Assembly: GCA_002420145.1 (NCBI GenBank)
Contig: DIHL01000021.1
Coordinates: 13,112-77,111 of the forward strand
Length of the DNA: 64,000 nt
Origin: Bacteroidetes bacterium UBA5697
Lineage (GTDB): Bacteria > Bacteroidota > Bacteroidia > B-17B0 > Aurantibacillaceae
Direction: 5' to 3'
In this document: positions 2,019 through 34,242 of the stretch, piece after piece
Position numbering within the stretch: the stretch's first letter is position 1
Layout: the number at the start of each line of letters is the position of its first letter
The notes under the pieces: generated by a model
Databases searched by the model: none
The model's input: the letters and a program-made list of their open reading frames with translations, nothing else
Told to the model about the DNA's origin: nothing
Translations under genes and position numbers: made by a program

Positions 2019-5000
2019 TTATTGCAACTCTTTCGCTAAAGACGGCAGGATAGTATTAGTTGAATCAGTAACAATTTGAGAATACTCTTCAATCATTTTC
2101 ATGTCATTTCCATTTTCAATTTTGTCGCAAAGTTCCACTAATGGTTGTATCATAAATAACGCATAGCTAGCTTTAATTTTATGTGCTACTTTTCTCGATT
2201 CTGAAATATTACCTTCTTGTACTGCAGTGGTCAACTTTTTTAAGTCTTCAGGTATCCCTGTTAAAAATATTTTAATCATTTCTTTAACAAACTCCGCATC
2301 ACCGCCAGATAATTCATTTATATCACTTAAATCATAATCTGCTTTAACGGTAAGTGTTTTAGGAATACTAACTTCAGATAAAATAACCTCTTCTCCTGAA
2401 CAAAGCAGTTTTATTTTATCAATTAGTTCTTTTGCTTTATAAGGTTTTGAAATGTATTCGTTCATGCCTGTTTGAATACATTTTTCTTTTTCTCCAACTA
2501 AGGAATGTGCTGTCATCGCTATCATTGGGGTTGTTATTTTTAAAACGTTTCTAATAAAAGAAGTAGCCACATACCCATCCATAACAGGCATTTGAAGATC
2601 CATGAGTATAACATCGTATTTGTTATTTTTAAGCATGTCAACAGCAATTTGACCATTTGCCGCAATTTCAACAACCATATTATTTTTCTCTAAAATATGT
2701 TTCGCTAACTTTTGATTCAAATCATTATCTTCTGTTAAAAGAACTTTATAGTTTTTAGATTCACTGTTTCTTTCAATTTTTTCTAATTCAAGTTTATCTT
2801 TTGCTTCAGTAACTTCAAATGGAATGGATACAATAAATTCAGACCCAACGCCTTCTTCACTTTTAATTTCTATTTTACCATTAAATAGTTCCAATAATTT
2901 TTTGGTAATACTTAATCCGAGGCCTGTGCCACCAAATTTTCTAGTGGTATTATCATCAGCCTGTTTAAATCGTTCGAAAACGAGGTCGTATTTGTCTTTA
3001 GGAATACCTATCCCGGTATCCTTTACAATAAATTGTACTATGCAATTATTATCTGATTTATTTAGCACGTTGCAATAGAGTTCAACTTTTCCTTTCTCAG
3101 TGAATTTAATTGCATTTCCCAATAAATTAACCAGTATTTGATTTAAGCGTACACTATCACCCATAACCCATTCAGGCAAGTCATTTTCAATATAAAAATT
3201 AAAGGCTAAATTCCGTTCGTTTGCCTTGTGTATTAATAGTTTTTTAATATTATTAGTAATCTTAATAATACTGATAGGTTGGTGTTCTAAAGTCAATTTG
3301 CCTGAATCAATTTTAGAAAAATCAAGAATGTCGTTGATAATAACCATCAAATTTTCACCTGAATTACTAATAGCTGAAAGATATTCTGTCTGATCATTAT
3401 TAAGATTGGTTGTTTTTAAGATATCAGCAAAACCAAGTATAGCGTTCATTGGTGTTCTAATTTCATGACTCATGTTGGCTAAAAATTGATCTTTCGCAAA
3501 AACACTTTTTTCTGCTTGCAATTTGGCTTTCTTAAGTTCATCTTCCATTTTAACTCTTTCAGTAATATCAATGGCATTACCTATTGCAATTCTTTTATCA
3601 GTAGAGTCATCAACTAGTATGTTTTTATAATACCAAACTTTAGCATCCCCATTTTTATGAAGAACAGACATTAATCCTTCTGCCGCTCCTTTATTATATA
3701 TTTTTTCTAAGTAGTTATCAATCCGTTTCTTCAAATTAATTGGCGTTACATCATATAATGTTTTTTGAAGTAGCTCTTCTGGCGTATAACCAATCAAAGC
3801 GGCACCAGCCTTATTCATGCTTAAGAACTTTCCGGTTTCGTCATGAGTACACATAAGACCTTGAGCATTTTCGAAAAACACTCGGTGTTTTTCTTCACTA
3901 AGCTTTAGCTTATTTTGACTTTCCAAGAATTCTGTTACATCTCTTGCTATACCTAAATATCCCGTTATGTTTTTATCAGAATCAAAAAGAGTTGTTACAG
4001 ACAACTGCACCTTTATACGAATACCATCTTTCTTGATATATGTCCAGTCATTAACATCGGGCGCTCCTGTTTTTGATTTAGCAACAAACACTTCAAAACC
4101 AGGTTCAATCGTTTTATTTAATTCAGTTGATAATACTTTTGCTCTGGCTACTACCTCATCAAGATCATGGAAAATGGCAGGTGAAGATTTATGAATTAAC
4201 TCTTCTGCATTATATCCAAGTAATTCTTCAGCTCCTTTATTAAAATTTACAATAATTCCTTCAATATCTGTAGCAATTATGGCATAATCTGTTCCATTAA
4301 GAATAGCATTTTGAAATTCGGCTAAACCTCTGATTTTCTGTTCGGAAAACACCTGTTCAGTAATGTCATACGAAATGCCAATATATTGATAAGGTTTATC
4401 ACTTCCGTTCATAAAGGGAACAATCGTTGTATCAACCCAATAAAAACTCCCGTTTTTGTTTTTGTTTTTAATTTGTCCTTTCCATATATTACCTGAATTA
4501 ATGTTAGATTTTAGATTCGTTAGAAATTCATTTGAATAATAACCAGAGCTAACAATTACATGATCTTTTCCTATTAACTCTTCCCTTGAGTATTTTGAGA
4601 TTTCACAAAACTTATCATTAACGTAAGTTATTTTAAAATTATCATCTACGATAGAAACAATGGCAGACTCATCAAGTGCTTTTTGTAATTGCTTGGTTTG
4701 ATTTAAAGCAGAAATTAATTCATTTTCTTCTCTTTTTCGTTCTGTAATATCTCTTGCAATAGCATAAATACTACCAGTGGATTCATCAGGGTTGGCCAAC
4801 CAATTTAGCACTGTGTATTCTCCTGATTTTTTAATATAACGATTAACGAAATTAATGGTTTTACTACCATTCGACAGTTTTTTCACCTCCTCAATTGTTT
4901 TTTCTACATCTTCTGGATGAACAAAATCAACGAAAGGCTTTTCCAATAATTCTTTTTCTGACCAGCCTAAAACCATTGAAAAGGCAGGGTTAACACGTTT

Positions 5001-26961: not shown

Positions 26962-27046
26962 GGAGAAATGGCAGAGTGGTCGATTGCGGCAGTCTTGAAA
27001 ACTGTTGAACCGTGAGGTTCCTGGGGTTCGAATCCCTATTTCTCCG
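26962..27046 (+). tRNA. tRNA-Ser (anticodon UGA)
   Basis: Folded by hand. Acceptor GGAGAAA/TTTCTCC, D-stem GCAG/TTGC, anticodon stem GCAGT/ACTGT with loop CT-TGA-AA. Long variable arm GAACC-gtga-GGTTC. T-arm TGGGG-TTCGAAT-CCCTA. Discriminator G. Confidence 0.92.
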
Positions 27047-27050
27047 CTGA
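26986..27050 (+). repeat. attL: 65-bp direct repeat (3' 61 nt of tRNA-Ser plus CTGA)
   Basis: Letter-for-letter identical to 33531-33595. Confidence 0.9.
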
Positions 27051-27208: not shown

Positions 27209-28426
27209 ATGCTTGATCATCTCATTACGCACTTCTACTTGCCTAAAAACAAGAGACTTAAATCTGGTGAAGTTCCTGTTTATTGCAGAATTACATTAAA
27301 TGGAAACCGTGCTACTTTTAGTACAGGCATTTATGTTTATGAAGATTGTTGGAACGCTAAAATCAAACAGGTACACCCAACAGATGCATCAGCGCATTTG
27401 GTTAATCCACGGCTTTTTAAAATTCAGGAGAAAGTGCAGCAAACCTACTTTAAGCTAGAGAGCTTGAATAAAGAGATAACTGCAGCTACACTGGTAGACA
27501 ATTTACTGAACAGAAAGAAAAAAGAAGAGAAAGCAAGAAGCCTGTTTGCACTCTTTGAGAATCATAACAAGAAAGTAAAATCACTTGTGCCTGCAGAGTA
27601 TGCACCTGGTACTTATGAAAGATACTGCACCAGCTTAAAACATATAAGGGATTTTGTAAAGATCAAGTACAAGGCAAATGATTATGCTCTTGTTGATGTA
27701 AACCATGAATTCATAACTGAGTTTGACTACTACCTAAGAGCAACAAGGAAGTGCAACAATAACAGTACGGTGAAATACCTAAAAAACTTTAAGAAGATTA
27801 TACGTATTGCACTTGCAAATAATTGGATTGAGAAAGACCCTTTTGTCAATTACAAAAACAAGCTGGAAAAAGTTGATAGAGGTTACCTAACTGTTGATGA
27901 ACTAAACAAGTTGTGCCAAAAACATTTTACTATCATCCGGCTTGAATTAGTGAAGGATTTATTTGTCTTCCAATGCTTCACAGGTCTTGCTTACGTCGAT
28001 ACTCAAAAACTAACAGAGGAGCACTTGGTTAAAGATGAAAATGGAATAATGTGGATTAGAACTAGGAGAAAAAAAACTGATATTGCAATAAATATTCCAT
28101 TACTGCCTAAGGCAGCTGAAATAATAAATAGGTATAAAGGCTCTATCAAAAATGGTCAACTGTTACCAAAACTAAGCAACCAAAAGATGAATGCCTACTT
28201 AAAAGAGATTGCTGACTTATGTGGTATTGAGAAAAATTTAAGTAGCCATTTGGCCCGCCATACATTTGCCACAGTAGTAACTCTTGCCAACGGAGTAAGT
28301 ATCGAATCCGTTAGCAAAATGCTTGGTCATACTAATCTCAATACAACCAAGATTTACGCACGCATGCTTGATAGCAGGGTTTTGGAAGAGATGCAATTAC
28401 TTACAAAGAAGTTGCAGGATAAATAA
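27209..28426 (+). CDS. int: Tyrosine-type site-specific integrase (Bacteroidota type with N-terminal arm-binding domain)
   Basis: 405 aa. The C-terminal catalytic region reads HLARHTFATVV...LGHTNLNTTKIYAR. Confidence 0.9.
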   Translation: MLDHLITHFYLPKNKRLKSGEVPVYCRITLNGNRATFSTGIYVYEDCWNAKIKQVHPTDASAHLVNPRLFKIQEKVQQTYFKLESLNKEITAATLVDNLLNRKKKEEKARSLFALFENHNKKVKSLVPAEYAPGTYERYCTSLKHIRDFVKIKYKANDYALVDVNHEFITEFDYYLRATRKCNNNSTVKYLKNFKKIIRIALANNWIEKDPFVNYKNKLEKVDRGYLTVDELNKLCQKHFTIIRLELVKDLFVFQCFTGLAYVDTQKLTEEHLVKDENGIMWIRTRRKKTDIAINIPLLPKAAEIINRYKGSIKNGQLLPKLSNQKMNAYLKEIADLCGIEKNLSSHLARHTFATVVTLANGVSIESVSKMLGHTNLNTTKIYARMLDSRVLEEMQLLTKKLQDK

Positions 28427-28474: not shown

Positions 28475-28780
28475 AAGTAAGTAAACAAGAAAGATTTAAA
28501 CTTCATGCATTTACTTCATTACATAGCTAGTTTTAAACATTAAAAGTTTATGCGGATAAAAAAGTTGAGCGTGTAATCCTATGCTAGTACTCCACTATTT
28601 CATAGTCCCCCTAGTTAATACAAAAGGGTGTACCCCCCTCGGTGATTTAAATTAGCTGAACTCAATTCATGGTAAATCTAACATGAATTTTTTCTGGCAA
28701 AAAACAAAGTCTTTTTTTCTTCTGCCATCGCAAAAATCTTCCCACCTATTTCTTAAACATCTATCGTGTGATTAAAAACT

Positions 28781-29236
28781 ATGGAAAGCACATCACACTT
28801 TATTAATGAGTTAGCTATAACATATTCACGCAAGGAGATAAGCCACAACTCTATTAAAAACTCTAATGCTGTATATCAACTTATAAAAGATATATACAGC
28901 AACACTCAATCTGAAATTGAACTCAAGGAGTACTTCTTCATGATCCTTCTCAACCGTGCTAACAAAGTTATTGGCTACTATAAACTTTCTGAAGGAGGCA
29001 TATCAGGTACTGTTGTTGACCTGCGCTTGGCTTTCGGAACAGCTTTAAAGGGTCTAGCATCAGGCATTATAATGGCGCACAACCATCCTTCAGGTAACCT
29101 TTGTCCTTCTGAAGAAGACAAGCGCCTCACTAAAAAGTTTGTTGAAGCAGGTAAACTACTTGACATCGCTGTGCTAGATCATTTGATTGTAACTAACGAT
29201 GGCTATTACTCATTTGCAGATGAGGGCTTAATTTAA
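28781..29236 (+). CDS. RadC-like JAB/MPN domain protein
   Basis: 151 aa with the JAMM motif AHNHPSGNLCPSEEDKRLTKK. Confidence 0.85.
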   Translation: MESTSHFINELAITYSRKEISHNSIKNSNAVYQLIKDIYSNTQSEIELKEYFFMILLNRANKVIGYYKLSEGGISGTVVDLRLAFGTALKGLASGIIMAHNHPSGNLCPSEEDKRLTKKFVEAGKLLDIAVLDHLIVTNDGYYSFADEGLI

Positions 29237-29317
29237 AGCACAAGGCACACATGTGCTTTGTAAAAGCTATTTCTTAAACATCAATGGTGCTTGTATTAAC
29301 CTTAAAACTTATAAATC

Positions 29318-30214
29318 ATGAACAAAATTAACAAGGCAGCAAGGAACCGCTGCAAAATCAAAATGGCTGTACAAGGAGCTTCAGGTTCAGGCAAAACTTA
29401 TTCTGCATTGTTACTTGCATATGGTCTTACGCAAGACTGGTCAAAAGTTGTTGTCATAGATAGCGAGAACGGCTCAGCTAATCTTTATGCAGAACTTGGA
29501 GATTATTCTGTATTAAATCTTGCAGCACCGTACACACCAGAAGCCTATTCAGAAGCAATAGATTTAGCAGCTAAAAATGGTTTTGAATGTATAATCATAG
29601 ATAGCCTATCTCATGAGTGGTCAGGGCAAGGAGGTGTATTAGATATACACAGTAACATACCCGGGAACTCCTTCACTGCTTGGGCAAAAGTCACGCCACG
29701 GCATAATGCTTTTGTACAGAAAATCCTGCAAACTGATTTACACATTATCTCTACAATGCGTAGTAAAACAGAGTATGCTATGTCGGAGAAAAATGGTAAG
29801 CAAGTTCCAGAGAAGCTTGGCTTGAAAGCTGTGCAGCGTGAGGATACTGAGTACGAATTTACCATTGTGTTTGAGCTCAATCAAAGACATCAGGCAACAG
29901 TTAGTAAAGACCGCACTGGTTTATTCCGTAACAAGCCTGAGCTAACACTAACTGCTGATGTAGGAAAAGTAATAGCAGACTGGTGTAATATCAGCACAAT
30001 AAAAGCTAATCCTGAAATTGTGGCGCAGAAGAAAGAAGTACCTCAGGATGATTTTGTAACACGCATTAATCAGTGTGCAACAATGGAGGACTTAATAAGC
30101 TTATTCAACAGTAATCCGGCTCAACAACAACAGCACCGAGATAACTTTATCTCACGAAGAAATCACATCAATGTTCAATCTAAAAACTTTTTAAACAATG
30201 GAGTTCATCATTAA
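29318..30214 (+). CDS. RecA-fold P-loop ATPase, AAA_24 / phage Sak4-like
   Basis: Walker A is VQGASGSGKTYSAL and Walker B is CIIIDSLSHEW. Size and layout match phage AAA_24 proteins. Confidence 0.7.
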   Translation: MNKINKAARNRCKIKMAVQGASGSGKTYSALLLAYGLTQDWSKVVVIDSENGSANLYAELGDYSVLNLAAPYTPEAYSEAIDLAAKNGFECIIIDSLSHEWSGQGGVLDIHSNIPGNSFTAWAKVTPRHNAFVQKILQTDLHIISTMRSKTEYAMSEKNGKQVPEKLGLKAVQREDTEYEFTIVFELNQRHQATVSKDRTGLFRNKPELTLTADVGKVIADWCNISTIKANPEIVAQKKEVPQDDFVTRINQCATMEDLISLFNSNPAQQQQHRDNFISRRNHINVQSKNFLNNGVHH

Positions 30215-31196
30215 CAACCAAGAAGTGCTGGCGCAGTTGCCGGCACTTCAACCAAACGGAATAGGTATCTCATCTAGTAGTCAACCGTTCATTGAGGCTA
30301 ATACCATTCAAATGCCTGTTCAAGAAATGAAAGACCAACACATCATTCCCGTTTGGGCATCAAGTAATGAGCCGCTGATTAGTCACTCGGAGTTCATAGA
30401 AGCTACTTGGGAGCAGGTGCATAAACAATTTAGGAATGAGACCATTCTTAAACCCAATATTAGAGTAAGTCATCCTATAAAAGGAAGAATCCCGGAAGCC
30501 AAGCACAAAGCGGCAAAAGACTTAGAACCTTGGGAGCAAACAATATACTATGAACGTATGATGTTTGTAATAGAGTTGCCAAGCATAAGAGATGAAGTGA
30601 ATGGCAATTTACTATCATTAACAATCGGTGGAGTGAAGTCCTACAGTTTGGATAACCTTTACAGCAAAAGACCAAGCGGAGATCAACACTTTCAACTGTT
30701 TATCGGCTTTCAAAATAAAGTCTGCTGTAACCTTTGTGTATCAACGGATGGTTTTAAACATGAACTGGGAATCAAATCAGCTAGTCAGTTAAAGTACGCT
30801 GTGGAAAATCTGATTAACCAGTACAATGCCAGTAAGCATCTTAACAGGATGAAGTCTATGACCAATATGGAACTAATGGAATCAGAGTTTGCGCAAGTGA
30901 TTGGAAGAAGCAGAATGTATAAGCACCTGCCTGAGTATTCGCGTAAAGACATCCAACCCATGCTATTCGGTGACCAACAAATTAGTACTGTTGTACTGGA
31001 CTATTACAAGGATGCAAACTTTGGAACTGAAATCGGTGGAAGTATAAGTACATGGCAGTTCTACAACTTACTTACAGGAGCAAACAAGTCAACCTACATC
31101 GACAGCTTCCTGGTAAGAGGAGTAAATGCCACAGACTTTACTGCTGAAATCATCCAACACAAGATGGGGACAAAGCGAAGTTGGTTTATGGGTTAA
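30198..31196 (+). CDS. Conserved mobile-element protein, DUF3871/DUF932-like
   Basis: 332 aa. FIEANT, RVSHPIKGR, YYERMMF, GGVKSY..NLYSK and FIGFQNKVCCNLCVSTDG resemble my memory of DUF3871 proteins of Bacteroidota. It overlaps the upstream gene by 17 nt. Confidence 0.45.
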   Translation: MEFIINNQEVLAQLPALQPNGIGISSSSQPFIEANTIQMPVQEMKDQHIIPVWASSNEPLISHSEFIEATWEQVHKQFRNETILKPNIRVSHPIKGRIPEAKHKAAKDLEPWEQTIYYERMMFVIELPSIRDEVNGNLLSLTIGGVKSYSLDNLYSKRPSGDQHFQLFIGFQNKVCCNLCVSTDGFKHELGIKSASQLKYAVENLINQYNASKHLNRMKSMTNMELMESEFAQVIGRSRMYKHLPEYSRKDIQPMLFGDQQISTVVLDYYKDANFGTEIGGSISTWQFYNLLTGANKSTYIDSFLVRGVNATDFTAEIIQHKMGTKRSWFMG

Positions 31197-31675
31197 GCAA
31201 GAGCCTGGGAGAAATCCTGGGCTTTATATTACCTTTTAATTTGTCCTTGTTTTACAAAAGCTCATGCTGGAAGTTTACTACAAGAAAATAACTAGGTAGG
31301 GAAAAGGTAGATGTTGATAAAACTTGCACCTTACACATATTAACATTTTTCAGCCTAAAATGTCAATATTATTTTTTGGTCGGGATTGAAAGATGAATTA
31401 ATTTTGTAAAAGTACAGCGCAGTACTACCTTCTGCAGAAGGAACATATCTTCTCCTTAAGGCATTAAGGAGTCAATTTTGAAAGCGGATTAGTAATAATC
31501 TGAGTTAGCTAAATCTAGCAAAGTCGTAAGGCTTGATGTATAAAGTAACGGTTGTATATATATTATACAGATAAACTGCTTTATATATGTCTGTTAAACA
31601 ACAAGTTATTCTTAACCATTTTGGAAGTTGTGCAGCTGAAATTGCACCAACTTCCAAATTTAAAAAAACAAAGAC

Positions 31676-32137
31676 ATGAGTAATTATTCATTACCCAAAA
31701 GCGGGACTGTGTTTATGCCTGTGGCAAGATTTCAACCAATTATCAGTTATGACTTTAATGGTAATCCTTCTGTATACAAAAATGATGTGGACTTTAAAAA
31801 AGTTGGGCTAAGTGATGACTTTTTGAAAAACTTAATGAGCAACATTTCATTAACGGATATTGATATCCGGATTATGTTGTATATCATGCATAATTTACAA
31901 AGAGATTCTGACGAGGTGGTGTTAAATCCTACCATTATTAAAAGATATATTAACTGGGGGCACAGTTCAATAAGTGCATCCCTGATTAGACTTTGTAATG
32001 CAGGTTATATTATGCCTATAACAGGGAGAGGATCTGGTAGATGCAAATATCAGGTGAATGTATTAAATATGTTTTATGGCAACAGGATTGAGTTTCTGGA
32101 AAATATTGACCCAAAGTTAATACAGAGGGTTATATAA
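31676..32137 (+). CDS. Small protein with probable winged-helix DNA-binding domain (regulator or replication initiator)
   Basis: 153 aa. LTDIDIRIMLYIMHNL...SSISASLIRLCNAGYIMP looks like a wHTH. It is preceded by a 14-bp-stem hairpin. Confidence 0.4.
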   Translation: MSNYSLPKSGTVFMPVARFQPIISYDFNGNPSVYKNDVDFKKVGLSDDFLKNLMSNISLTDIDIRIMLYIMHNLQRDSDEVVLNPTIIKRYINWGHSSISASLIRLCNAGYIMPITGRGSGRCKYQVNVLNMFYGNRIEFLENIDPKLIQRVI

Positions 32138-32217
32138 AATCTGAAACATCAACTTGTGTTTATAGCCAGTTAAGGAATTTAGGTTAATCTTGAATATATT
32201 TTACATAAATTAGCCTA

Positions 32218-33360
32218 ATGGATCAAGGTTTAAAACAGAACGGTTTTTATTATGCTAATTTTCTTAAATCTGTTGATGGAGAAAATAGACTAACCTTCCT
32301 TGTTGTGTTCAGAGTAGGTGATTACTTATGTATGGATATTACTCCATCAGAGGAATCGGTAGTAGTTGATCAAGGTTTAATTGAGCACATCAAGGAGTGG
32401 AAGTCTTTGATTGTTGAAGCAATTAAAGATGGAAGCATTGATTCTGAAGAAGCTAAAGAGAAGTTTGCAAAATGCGAGCAATTAAGTACGGGGGTGCTTG
32501 AAGGTGTTTTTAAAGCAGGTAGCTTGTATCAGAAATTAACACTCACGTCAGCATTCAATAAAATTTCCGCAAGCCTTGAATCAAAAGGTTTTAGACCATT
32601 GCTTGGTAAGGAGGTCGTCAATACAATTTTCTCTGGTCTATTGTTGGATTTTCAGGAGACTGAAATACTTAATTATAAAACCATAGTTGAAAAGCTAAGC
32701 CCTAAAAATACCCAAGCTGAGTTAGCTAAACCAACTAATCAATTTGAGAAAAATGCAACGGAGTCTTTTTTTGAAAAGTATAGCACATATATATTACCCA
32801 GTCTAATTGTTGGCATGCTGATTCTACTATTTGTTTATTTAATCTTCTCATCAAAATCTAGTAAGTATAGTGACAATGATTACGCAAAAGCGGCAGCAAT
32901 AGCTGATTCAGTAGTTCAAGACTTAGTGTTAAATCAAGATTCCATTATTCAGGCAAGTAAGTATTATGAAGACTCAATTGCTGCAGAAGCAAATAAAGCA
33001 AGGGAAAGAATTTTAGGAGAACAAGAGGCAAGAAAAGCTGAAATGAGAAAGACAAGTTCGTATATGGAGGAGTATTCAGAGGATTTTCCATTTGAATACC
33101 ATGTTCCAAGTTGTCCAAATCAGGCTGAAACTAGTCTCCCTTCAGGAAAATGTTGGTTAGTGCTTTACTATGCTAAGCCAGGTAACCAAAATTGGCAAGA
33201 AGTAGGAGGAACTATTGTAGGTGTAAAAGCTGGAATTGATAATACGTTTCACTTTTTTGGCAAGAAGGGATGGAAATATGCATATTCCTGGGACGCGGGA
33301 AATTCCAGACCAATAAAACTTAAGCCTATAAACGTAAAGCAAACTTGGAGTGCGCAATAA
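32218..33360 (+). CDS. Single-pass membrane protein of unknown function (element cargo)
   Basis: 380 aa. It has one hydrophobic helix (YILPSLIVGMLILLFVYLIF), a coiled-coil-like stretch and a ~100-aa C-terminal domain with two Cys. Confidence 0.6.
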   Translation: MDQGLKQNGFYYANFLKSVDGENRLTFLVVFRVGDYLCMDITPSEESVVVDQGLIEHIKEWKSLIVEAIKDGSIDSEEAKEKFAKCEQLSTGVLEGVFKAGSLYQKLTLTSAFNKISASLESKGFRPLLGKEVVNTIFSGLLLDFQETEILNYKTIVEKLSPKNTQAELAKPTNQFEKNATESFFEKYSTYILPSLIVGMLILLFVYLIFSSKSSKYSDNDYAKAAAIADSVVQDLVLNQDSIIQASKYYEDSIAAEANKARERILGEQEARKAEMRKTSSYMEEYSEDFPFEYHVPSCPNQAETSLPSGKCWLVLYYAKPGNQNWQEVGGTIVGVKAGIDNTFHFFGKKGWKYAYSWDAGNSRPIKLKPINVKQTWSAQ

Positions 33361-33499: not shown

Positions 33500-33530
33500 T
33501 TTTGGAGGGTACTGGGGAATAGTAGATTTT

Positions 33531-33595
33531 GCGGCAGTCTTGAAAACTGTTGAACCGTGAGGTTCCTGGGGTTCGAATCCCTATTTCTCCGCTGA
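33531..33595 (+). repeat. attR: 65-bp direct repeat (tRNA-Ser 3' fragment, not a functional tRNA)
   Basis: Identical to 26986-27050. It lacks the acceptor 5' strand and the D-arm. Confidence 0.9.
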
Positions 33596-33629: not shown

Positions 33630-33852
33630 TTTTCCGAAATGTCCGAAAACTTGTTTTCAAGGACATAAAGGGAAATAAAAAAACAGATGCGAAGGATTTG
33701 GCTTTTTACATTATGACTCTGGGAGCTTTGGGGATCAGCGAAGCTAATCCTTCATTTAAATCGTGCGTCAAAGATGTGGAAAAATAAAAAGAATCCCATT
33801 GCACGGGATGCTTTTTACCCTATGACTCTGAAAGTATAGGGGATCAAAAAAT

Positions 33853-34242
33853 TTAATCCCTCCCTCCTCTAGCAATAATTCTTTTACGATGCTTTGTCCC
33901 CCATTTATGTAATTCCATAATTAATGGTTTTAATGTTTTGCCATAAGTTGTTAATTCATACTCCACAGTAACTGGAGATGTATCATAAACTTTTCTACTC
34001 GCTAATTCGTTTATTTCAAGCTCTTTTAATTCTTTCGATAACATCTTTGGTGTTAATCCTGTGATTTCTCTTTGAATTTGTTTAAATCGTTTTTTACCAA
34101 ATGTAAGAGATAGAATAATTTGCAGTTTCCATTTTCCACTTAAAATATCTAAAGCATCTTTTACTGGAAGTAATTGCTTAGTGCACTCTCCTGTTGAAAG
34201 ATGATTGGGACATTTTCGTTTATCGTTATCGGTAGTTTCCAT
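33853..34242 (-). CDS. HxlR-family winged-helix transcriptional regulator
   Basis: CP....C...L....DILSGKWKLQIILSL...RFKQIQREI..LTPKMLSKELKELE is typical of HxlR. I place the start at METTDND because a TAnnTTTG box overlaps the upstream ATG. Confidence 0.8.
   Translation of the reverse strand: METTDNDKRKCPNHLSTGECTKQLLPVKDALDILSGKWKLQIILSLTFGKKRFKQIQREITGLTPKMLSKELKELEINELASRKVYDTSPVTVEYELTTYGKTLKPLIMELHKWGTKHRKRIIARGGRD

Follow-up and report, generated by a model that had tools for sequence, protein, structure and literature searches.

A RadC-JAB, AAA_24 and DUF3871 gene module belongs to the conserved backbone of small tRNA-integrating islands of Bacteroidota

The stretch of DNA analysed here (64,000 nucleotides (nt) of contig DIHL01000021.1 of Bacteroidetes bacterium UBA5697, further called the window) contains an island of 6.5 kb that is integrated in a tRNA-Ser gene. 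The island carries three adjacent genes, encoding a short RadC-like JAB protein, an AAA_24 ATPase and a DUF3871 protein. Together with the integrase gene, these three genes form the conserved backbone of the island and are not part of its cargo. The robust core of the module is the AAA_24/DUF3871 pair, with RadC as a frequent member. Relatives of this core, with anti-phage cargo that varies, are present in hundreds of species of Bacteroidota.

Backbone and cargo were distinguished by comparison with close relatives. Relatives with 69-80% identity in DUF3871, from metagenomes as well as genomes, keep the integrase, RadC, AAA_24 and DUF3871 genes. The genes downstream differ between them and include restriction-modification (RM) systems of type I, a HigB-like toxin, Por_Secre_tail proteins secreted by the type IX secretion system (T9SS), Fic and an AAA_13 ATPase. 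The integration targets differ as well (tRNA-Ser, tRNA-Asn, tRNA-Val, tRNA-Ala and tmRNA). Since the integrase and the three genes are constant while cargo and target are swapped, the module belongs to the backbone. At the DNA level, the island and its closest relative (locus L046) share 70-87% identity from radC through orf153 (28700-32150). The integrase gene is 47-67% identical over most of its length, with up to 74% at its 3' end, and beyond 32150 the identity is 40-55%, which is the background of unrelated sequence.

DUF3871 matches amounted to more than 7000 proteins in 90% clusters and 684 in 50% representatives. Their distribution was patchy, with 18 of the 401 sampled Bacteroidota genomes containing one match each. 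A scan of species-representative genomes yielded at least 570 relatives. A set of 97 loci, each from a different Bacteroidota species, was composed of 16 of the 17 regions from the sampled genomes (the fragment-only locus L035 was excluded), 80 regions from the species-representative scan and the window. Open reading frames (ORFs) were called in all 97 loci, with heuristic starts, and subsequently clustered.

In 77 of the 97 loci the gene immediately preceding DUF3871, in the same orientation, was AAA_24. In approximately 70 of those 77 the two genes overlapped, mostly by 14-26 nt according to the heuristic start calls. This co-occurrence is far above chance. DUF3871 was restricted to Bacteroidota among the recovered loci, and the pair is conserved across several orders. 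A RadC homologue was found near DUF3871 in about 35 of the 97 loci, mostly at position +1 to +3, and its position was not fixed. An earlier note on this DNA had described the three genes as one module and had named a lack of co-occurrence outside this genome as a ground for rejecting it; since the families co-occur in other genomes, that ground falls away. The extent of the module has to be revised, however, because the core is the AAA_24/DUF3871 pair and the order RadC-AAA_24-DUF3871 is specific to one clade (the window, L054-L056 and the metagenome loci L037-L039 and L046-L049).

Two small genes accompany the pair in other loci. Gene c3 (115 amino acids (aa)) was present in 58 of the 97 loci, in 42 of them at position -2, and c5 (81 aa) in 47, in 35 of them at position +1. 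Based on these counts the usual module consists of c3, which is predicted to encode an SSB-like (single-stranded DNA-binding protein-like) protein with an oligonucleotide-binding (OB) fold, followed by AAA_24, DUF3871, c5 and often RadC. A RadC gene at position -2 without c3 and c5 was confined to the clade of the window. An integrase gene was present in 41 of the loci, and a tRNA or tmRNA gene lay within 10 kb in approximately 30 of the 52 loci tested, with tRNA types varying widely.

Outside genomic islands DUF3871 was rare. Of 50,697 phage records only 2, both small virome contigs, contained it, and it was further found in one IMG/VR contig and in one plasmid record. A contig of 4253 bp from a human faecal virome, deposited as 'Bacteriophage sp.' (MT839478.1), contains AAA_24 (1836-2627), DUF3871 (2857-3765) and RadC (3795-4223); this could reflect island DNA in virus-like particles, or contamination. 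A circular record of 15.5 kb from Bacteroides finegoldii ('plasmid 58', NZ_OY725960.1) encodes two tyrosine integrases, an Eco57I-type RM methylase, a serine recombinase and DUF3871, and has no annotated replication gene. It is probably an excised island that was assembled as a circle.

The borders of the island are formed by an exact direct repeat of 67 nt, which corresponds to the 3' part of the tRNA-Ser gene (Table 1). Between the repeats lie, in this order, the genes for the integrase, RadC, AAA_24 and DUF3871, a non-coding stretch of 479 nt, orf153 and orf380. The G + C content of the island (0.36-0.37) was higher than that of the surrounding DNA (approximately 0.31). The element is present as a single copy in the genome, and a second RadC gene with 50% identity is located elsewhere. 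ARAGORN also predicted a tRNA-Arg(gcg) at 33504-33592; this is made up of attR, which copies the 3' part of tRNA-Ser, and island sequence, and is therefore an artefact. A Logan contig of 6538 bp was considered as a possible excised circle. The contig represents the element, but it ends 30 nt inside each att repeat, as an assembly break with k=31 would give, and is therefore no evidence of a circle.

The window contains three consecutive ORFs on the + strand, the last two overlapping by 17 nt, and the RadC, AAA_24 and DUF3871 assignments of the earlier note all scored above the Pfam cut-offs in hidden Markov model searches. The RadC ORF matched PF04002 with E=7.8e-38 (129.6 bits, cut-off 22.1). 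Its metal site HNHPSG...PSEED is intact and the N-terminal helix-hairpin-helix domain is absent. In an alignment with PDB entry 2qlc (E=3.3e-20) the JAMM metal site H-x-H...S-x-x-D was conserved, the motif HNHPSGNLCPSEED being aligned with the same motif. With the NCBIfam models for canonical chromosomal RadC, NF000642 and TIGR00608, the protein scored 114 (cut-off 180) and 100.5 bits (cut-off 133.85), respectively, and the match with the full-length NCBIfam model was restricted to model positions 78-212. Judged by its sequence, the island RadC is a short, JAB-only form.

The ATPase scored 65.7 bits with PF13479 (E=6.4e-18, cut-off 27). Its translation has an intact Walker A motif, GASGSGKT, and an intact Walker B motif, IIIDS. 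Among the PHROGs it had a strong match with phrog_1366 (E=2.4e-83), a family of unknown function. A tblastn search with the ATPase matched 417 phage records at approximately 45-47% identity, and the protein is related to 'RecA-like recombination' proteins of phage early operons. In Erwinia phage 59 the homologue lies in a lambdoid early-left operon downstream of N, the slot for recombination functions; in Pseudomonas phage KLEP17-4 it adjoins cro. The AlphaFold2 model of c3, the gene usually found upstream of AAA_24 in relatives, had a pLDDT of 87 and the order beta1-3/alpha/beta4-5, which is an OB topology, followed by a disordered C-terminal tail that is acidic in the sequences. Neither c3 nor c5 had a match in Pfam or PHROGs.

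The DUF3871 protein matched PF12987 with E=1e-112 (376.6 bits, cut-off 27) over 303 of the 318 model positions. Its ATG lies 17 nt ahead of the end of the AAA_24 stop codon (30212-30214). The AlphaFold2 model had a pLDDT of 83 and a pTM of 0.80. A fold search of the PDB with this model gave only matches with a TM-score below 0.2, and a PDB sequence search and two profile searches gave noise only; DUF3871 therefore has no solved relative. A Foldseek search of models of viral proteins (BFVD) returned 26 matches with E<1e-3 (query TM-score 0.34-0.57), several of which are annotated as DUF932/TIGR03299, the best of these having E=2.4e-8 and a Foldseek probability of 1.0. In Pfam searches with PF06067 / TIGR03299, the DUF3871 protein of the window had no DUF932 match at E<=10, and among 41 diverse members one had a match (E=0.13). 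A profile-profile alignment (hhalign) of DUF3871 with DUF932, for which the DUF932 profile was built from 4 sequences only, had a probability of 64% (E=6.6e-5) over 145 columns including a VCxN motif. The designation 'DUF932-type' in the earlier note is thus borne out by structure comparison and weakly by profiles, and is invisible to Pfam. DUF3871 is predicted to be a distant member of the DUF932/TIGR03299 superfamily. In the literature we found DUF3871 mentioned solely inside a table of one paper, and we found no functional study of DUF932.

DUF932 itself is common on other mobile elements. Matches with YfjQ were found on at least 5000 enterobacterial plasmids, 4360 of which are conjugative. 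On an IncF plasmid the DUF932 gene shares the leading region with ssb and psiB, and a single gene (encoding an SLT transglycosylase) lies between it and traM. The CP4-57 element of E. coli carries a DUF932 gene (yfjQ) as well as a RadC-JAB gene (lfgB), the latter in an operon with a putative antirestriction gene. LfgB has been reported to be a protease that degrades the antitoxin MqsA (PMC10846083).

We tentatively favour, at somewhat less than even confidence, a module that serves the element itself, as an early, establishment or recombination set handling the island's own single-stranded or excised DNA. By analogy, it would be of the kind found in early recombination operons of phages and in leading regions of plasmids. 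Upon excision, or upon arrival in a cell, the AAA_24 protein would bind and pair single-stranded or gapped element DNA, accompanied by the small SSB-like OB-fold protein that most relatives encode just upstream. The overlapping start would fix the stoichiometry of DUF3871, which would act as the partner of the ATPase on element DNA. The short RadC-JAB metallo-hydrolase would remove or process a protein that otherwise blocks establishment. The outcome would be recircularisation, recombination, second-strand conversion or protection of the element; the host would not be served.

The backbone status of the module, the tight coupling of AAA_24 and DUF3871, the phage ATPase homologues in recombination slots and the predicted OB topology of c3 all appear consistent with this proposal. 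In addition, the positions of DUF932 in a plasmid leading region and on CP4-57 and the lack of a PADLOC match would fit such a role by analogy. In a more far-reaching version, which is doubtful, AAA_24 and DUF3871, joined in most relatives by the SSB-like and 81-aa proteins, would by themselves suffice for a whole class of small Bacteroidota islands to establish from single-stranded or excised DNA, with no need of primase or helicase. If true, this would provide the first function for the DUF932 superfamily, one that it would have in common with the genes that conjugative plasmids transfer first.

Several observations weigh against an element-serving DNA-handling set. The 'Sak4-type' label that the earlier note gave to the ATPase corresponds to a weak and partial match with the Sak4-like phrog_124 (E=2.7e-6, residues 3-99 only), whereas the strong match is with phrog_1366. 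The likeness of c3 to SSB and PriB, which make up nearly all of its top 50 fold matches in the PDB, is weak (E ~1e-2, TM-score ~0.3), and tblastn found neither c3 nor c5 in the window. In approximately 10 of the 97 loci DUF3871 has no adjacent AAA_24. A diverse alignment of DUF3871 contains no invariant acidic residues, and no enzymatic mechanism can therefore be proposed. Without a relaxase, oriT protein, primase or packaging gene (Pfam, PHROGs and NCBIfam), the island appears to offer no visible route to single-stranded DNA or into a cell. Finally, DUF932 did not adjoin AAA_24 in three phages, where it was found among small accessory early genes. A universal AAA_24/DUF932 partnership was discarded for this reason; the partnership may therefore be specific to Bacteroidota.

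The same surroundings of DUF932 could point to an anti-defence set, which would neutralise host immunity (restriction, SOS or abortive responses) when the island enters, while RadC would cleave a defence or regulatory protein of the host. ArdA, KlcA and PsiB are leading-region plasmid proteins that neutralise host immunity. The location of DUF932 in a leading region that also contains ssb and psiB, a single gene away from traM, agrees with such a role, as do the operon of lfgB with its putative antirestriction gene, the reported degradation of MqsA by LfgB (PMC10846083) and the accessory early position of DUF932 genes in phages. An ATPase with a RecA core, probably partnered by an SSB, is more reminiscent of DNA metabolism, however, than of an inhibitor. 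Most known anti-defence genes are small and evolve fast; AAA_24/DUF3871, in contrast, is conserved across several orders, and no known anti-defence family was matched. We consider an anti-defence set unlikely; it overlaps with the element-serving set proposed above and is compatible with it.

Autonomous replication as a satellite-like or plasmid-like circle, with DUF3871 as the initiator on the structured region downstream and AAA_24 as loader or motor, seems rather improbable. In its favour, a non-coding region of 479 nt follows DUF3871, a layout that recalls the rep-ori arrangement of satellites. From 31401 to 31700 the DNA identity with L046 was 77-80%, equal to that of the flanking genes, and as single-stranded DNA 31197-31675 folded better than shuffled sequences (z=-4.2). 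It matched no Rfam family and may combine a terminator with an ori, oriT or regulatory region. This region is missing, however, in other close relatives, with a gap of 75 nt in L048 and a convergent gene in L037. The element carries no other replication gene according to Pfam, the circular B. finegoldii record with two integrases and DUF3871 was deposited as a plasmid, and the faecal virome contig of 4.25 kb holds AAA_24, DUF3871 and RadC. On the other hand, DUF3871 occurred in just two of the phage records and one IMG/VR contig. There were no capsid, terminase or interference genes, a repeat search detected no iterons, and the phage homologues of the ATPase occupy recombination slots, not replication-initiation slots.

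Anti-phage defence or abortive-infection cargo, with the ATPase as sensor and DUF3871 and RadC as effectors, is very unlikely: although related islands are rich in defence cargo and an ATPase with proteins of unknown function is a common make-up of defence systems, the sole PADLOC-DB 2.0 match on the island was at noise level (typeIV_DinG, E=0.0026, on the P-loop), the module is invariant while the cargo varies, it adjoins the integrase and not the variable end, and phages themselves encode close homologues of the ATPase.

Table 1. Annotated features of the island and its target (positions in the window)
Feature	Position	Strand	Basis or remark
tRNA-Ser(TGA), integration target	26962-27047	+	ARAGORN; Rfam tRNA 55.4 bits
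attL, 3' part of tRNA-Ser	26984-27050	+	direct-repeat family D1
Tyrosine integrase, Bacteroidota-type, Arm-DNA-bind_5 + Phage_int_SAM_5 + Phage_integrase	27209-28426	+	Pfam E=2.5e-15, 9.2e-18, 3.6e-16; phrog_1 integrase E=9e-38
23-mer CTATTTCTTAAACATC(T/A)AT(C/G)GTG, copy 1	28746-28768	+	upstream of radC; repeat family D8, 91% identity
Short RadC-like JAB/JAMM protein, 151 aa	28781-29236	+	PF04002
23-mer CTATTTCTTAAACATC(T/A)AT(C/G)GTG, copy 2	29267-29289	+	upstream of AAA_24 gene
AAA_24 RecA-core-like ATPase, 298 aa	29318-30214	+	PF13479
DUF3871 protein, 332 aa	30198-31196	+	PF12987; ATG at 30198
Non-coding, hairpin-rich region, 479 nt, part of conserved block	31197-31675	.	DNA conservation and folding
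orf153, weak winged-helix candidate	31676-32137	+	HTH_27 E=0.014, below cut-off
orf380, element-specific cargo	32218-33360	+	no family match (Pfam, PHROGs, NCBIfam, PADLOC)
attR, exact 67-nt copy of tRNA-Ser 3' part	33529-33595	+	direct repeat D1, spacing 6545 nt

The repeated 23-mer may be a shared promoter or operator; its 15-mer core also precedes radC in L046 and L047. A hairpin is present at approximately 29236-29262, between the radC and AAA_24 genes. Just outside attR, before a gene for an HxlR-type regulator, a direct repeat of 53 nt with 75% identity was observed (33701-33753 and 33810-33862).

DUF3871, orf153 and orf380 had no match in PHROGs or NCBIfam. A homologue of orf153 was found by tblastn only in the closest relative element (L046/L047), with 70% aa identity, and neither the 97 loci nor the relatives from metagenomes contained a homologue of orf380. 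Pfam assignments of 148 neighbouring proteins of related islands showed variable defence and housekeeping genes. The defence cargo includes type I RM, the BrxC protein of bacteriophage exclusion (BREX) systems and DNA methylases, and the 25 Pfam families found most often in these neighbours included no relaxase, type IV secretion system (T4SS), primase or virion family. Approximately 10 related islands encode a recurrent protein of 490-690 aa (for example L093:6505-8226, L023:11023-13083 and L019:6924-8393) with the conserved motifs D(I/V)xNSQP and (I/V)HDSI; in some cases GIY-YIG and NUMOD domains are fused to it. A representative of 573 aa (k8) had no PHROG match, and Pfam recognised in a homologue of 686 aa only a C-terminal NUMOD1 and a sub-threshold GIY-YIG domain; the protein may be polymerase-like or primase-like. 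Three further clusters, k6 (25 loci), k9 (10 loci) and k13 (6 loci), were identified, by reading of the sequences alone, as XRE-type helix-turn-helix (HTH) repressors, excisionase-like HTH proteins and S24 (LexA/UmuD-like) peptidases, and their recurrence suggests a regulation that resembles that of phages and is possibly linked to SOS.

On plasmids, integrative elements and phages, few uncharacterised genes are as common as those for DUF932-type and short RadC proteins. The DUF932-like protein of Bacteroidota is tied to an ATPase of the RecA-core type and, in most cases, to an SSB-like protein, which provides a testable single-stranded DNA-handling context for both families. A tractable model host is Bacteroides thetaiotaomicron, with the integrase/DUF3871 locus BT0947-BT0948 (PMC10434189). 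The islands ferry RM and other defence cargo, and their mode of transfer therefore matters for the spread of immunity genes in Bacteroidota of soil, water and gut. No description of this widespread family of small tRNA-integrating Bacteroidota islands was found in the searchable literature.

Small cargo-carrying islands that integrate in the 3' end of tRNA genes by means of a tyrosine integrase, with a short direct repeat and a conserved backbone plus variable cargo, are also known from Prochlorococcus, namely the tycheposons. When compared with phage satellites such as the phage-inducible chromosomal islands (PICIs), the six island ORFs had no primase or replicase, packaging, capsid or capsid-redirection match (Pfam, PHROGs and NCBIfam). 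The components of integrative mobilisable or conjugative elements (relaxase, coupling protein, T4SS) were likewise not found in the element with Pfam and NCBIfam. The '10K' island of Riemerella shares with our island the tyrosine integrase, the 3' end of a tRNA gene as target, a short direct repeat and a backbone with variable cargo (PMC6764341). Its membership of the family was not confirmed, as its gene table contains no ORF of the size of AAA_24 or DUF3871.

Of the known RadC proteins, E. coli LfgB/YfjY, YeeS and YkfG resemble the island RadC in being JAB-only proteins of approximately 150 aa with an intact JAMM motif, encoded on an island integrated in a tRNA or tmRNA gene. Unlike the island RadC, LfgB has an antirestriction gene and a toxin-antitoxin pair in its operon, and not an ATPase gene. 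DUF932 / TIGR03299 proteins (YfjQ and YafZ of E. coli and the oriT-proximal leading-region ORF of IncF plasmids) are like DUF3871 in predicted fold, VCxN motif and association with mobile elements, some of which, CP4-57 for example, also carry a RadC-JAB gene. DUF3871 differs from them in having no sequence match at the level of Pfam, in its restriction to Bacteroidota among the recovered loci and in its pairing with an ATPase. The remaining known system is the Sak4 + SSB module of phages, such as hkaL/hkaK of HK620, in which Sak4 is a core-only RecA whose annealing activity is stimulated by the cognate SSB (PMC5928155). The island differs from these modules in its best PHROG (phrog_1366), in the overlapping DUF932-like gene beside the ATPase, which is absent from the phage modules, in the lack of an OB-fold gene in the window copy and in being an integrative island instead of a phage. 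It shares with them an AAA_24-type ATPase consisting of the RecA core only, which the phages encode in an early operon, and, where the Bacteroidota module has its usual composition, a small acidic-tailed protein with a predicted OB fold, encoded beside this ATPase.

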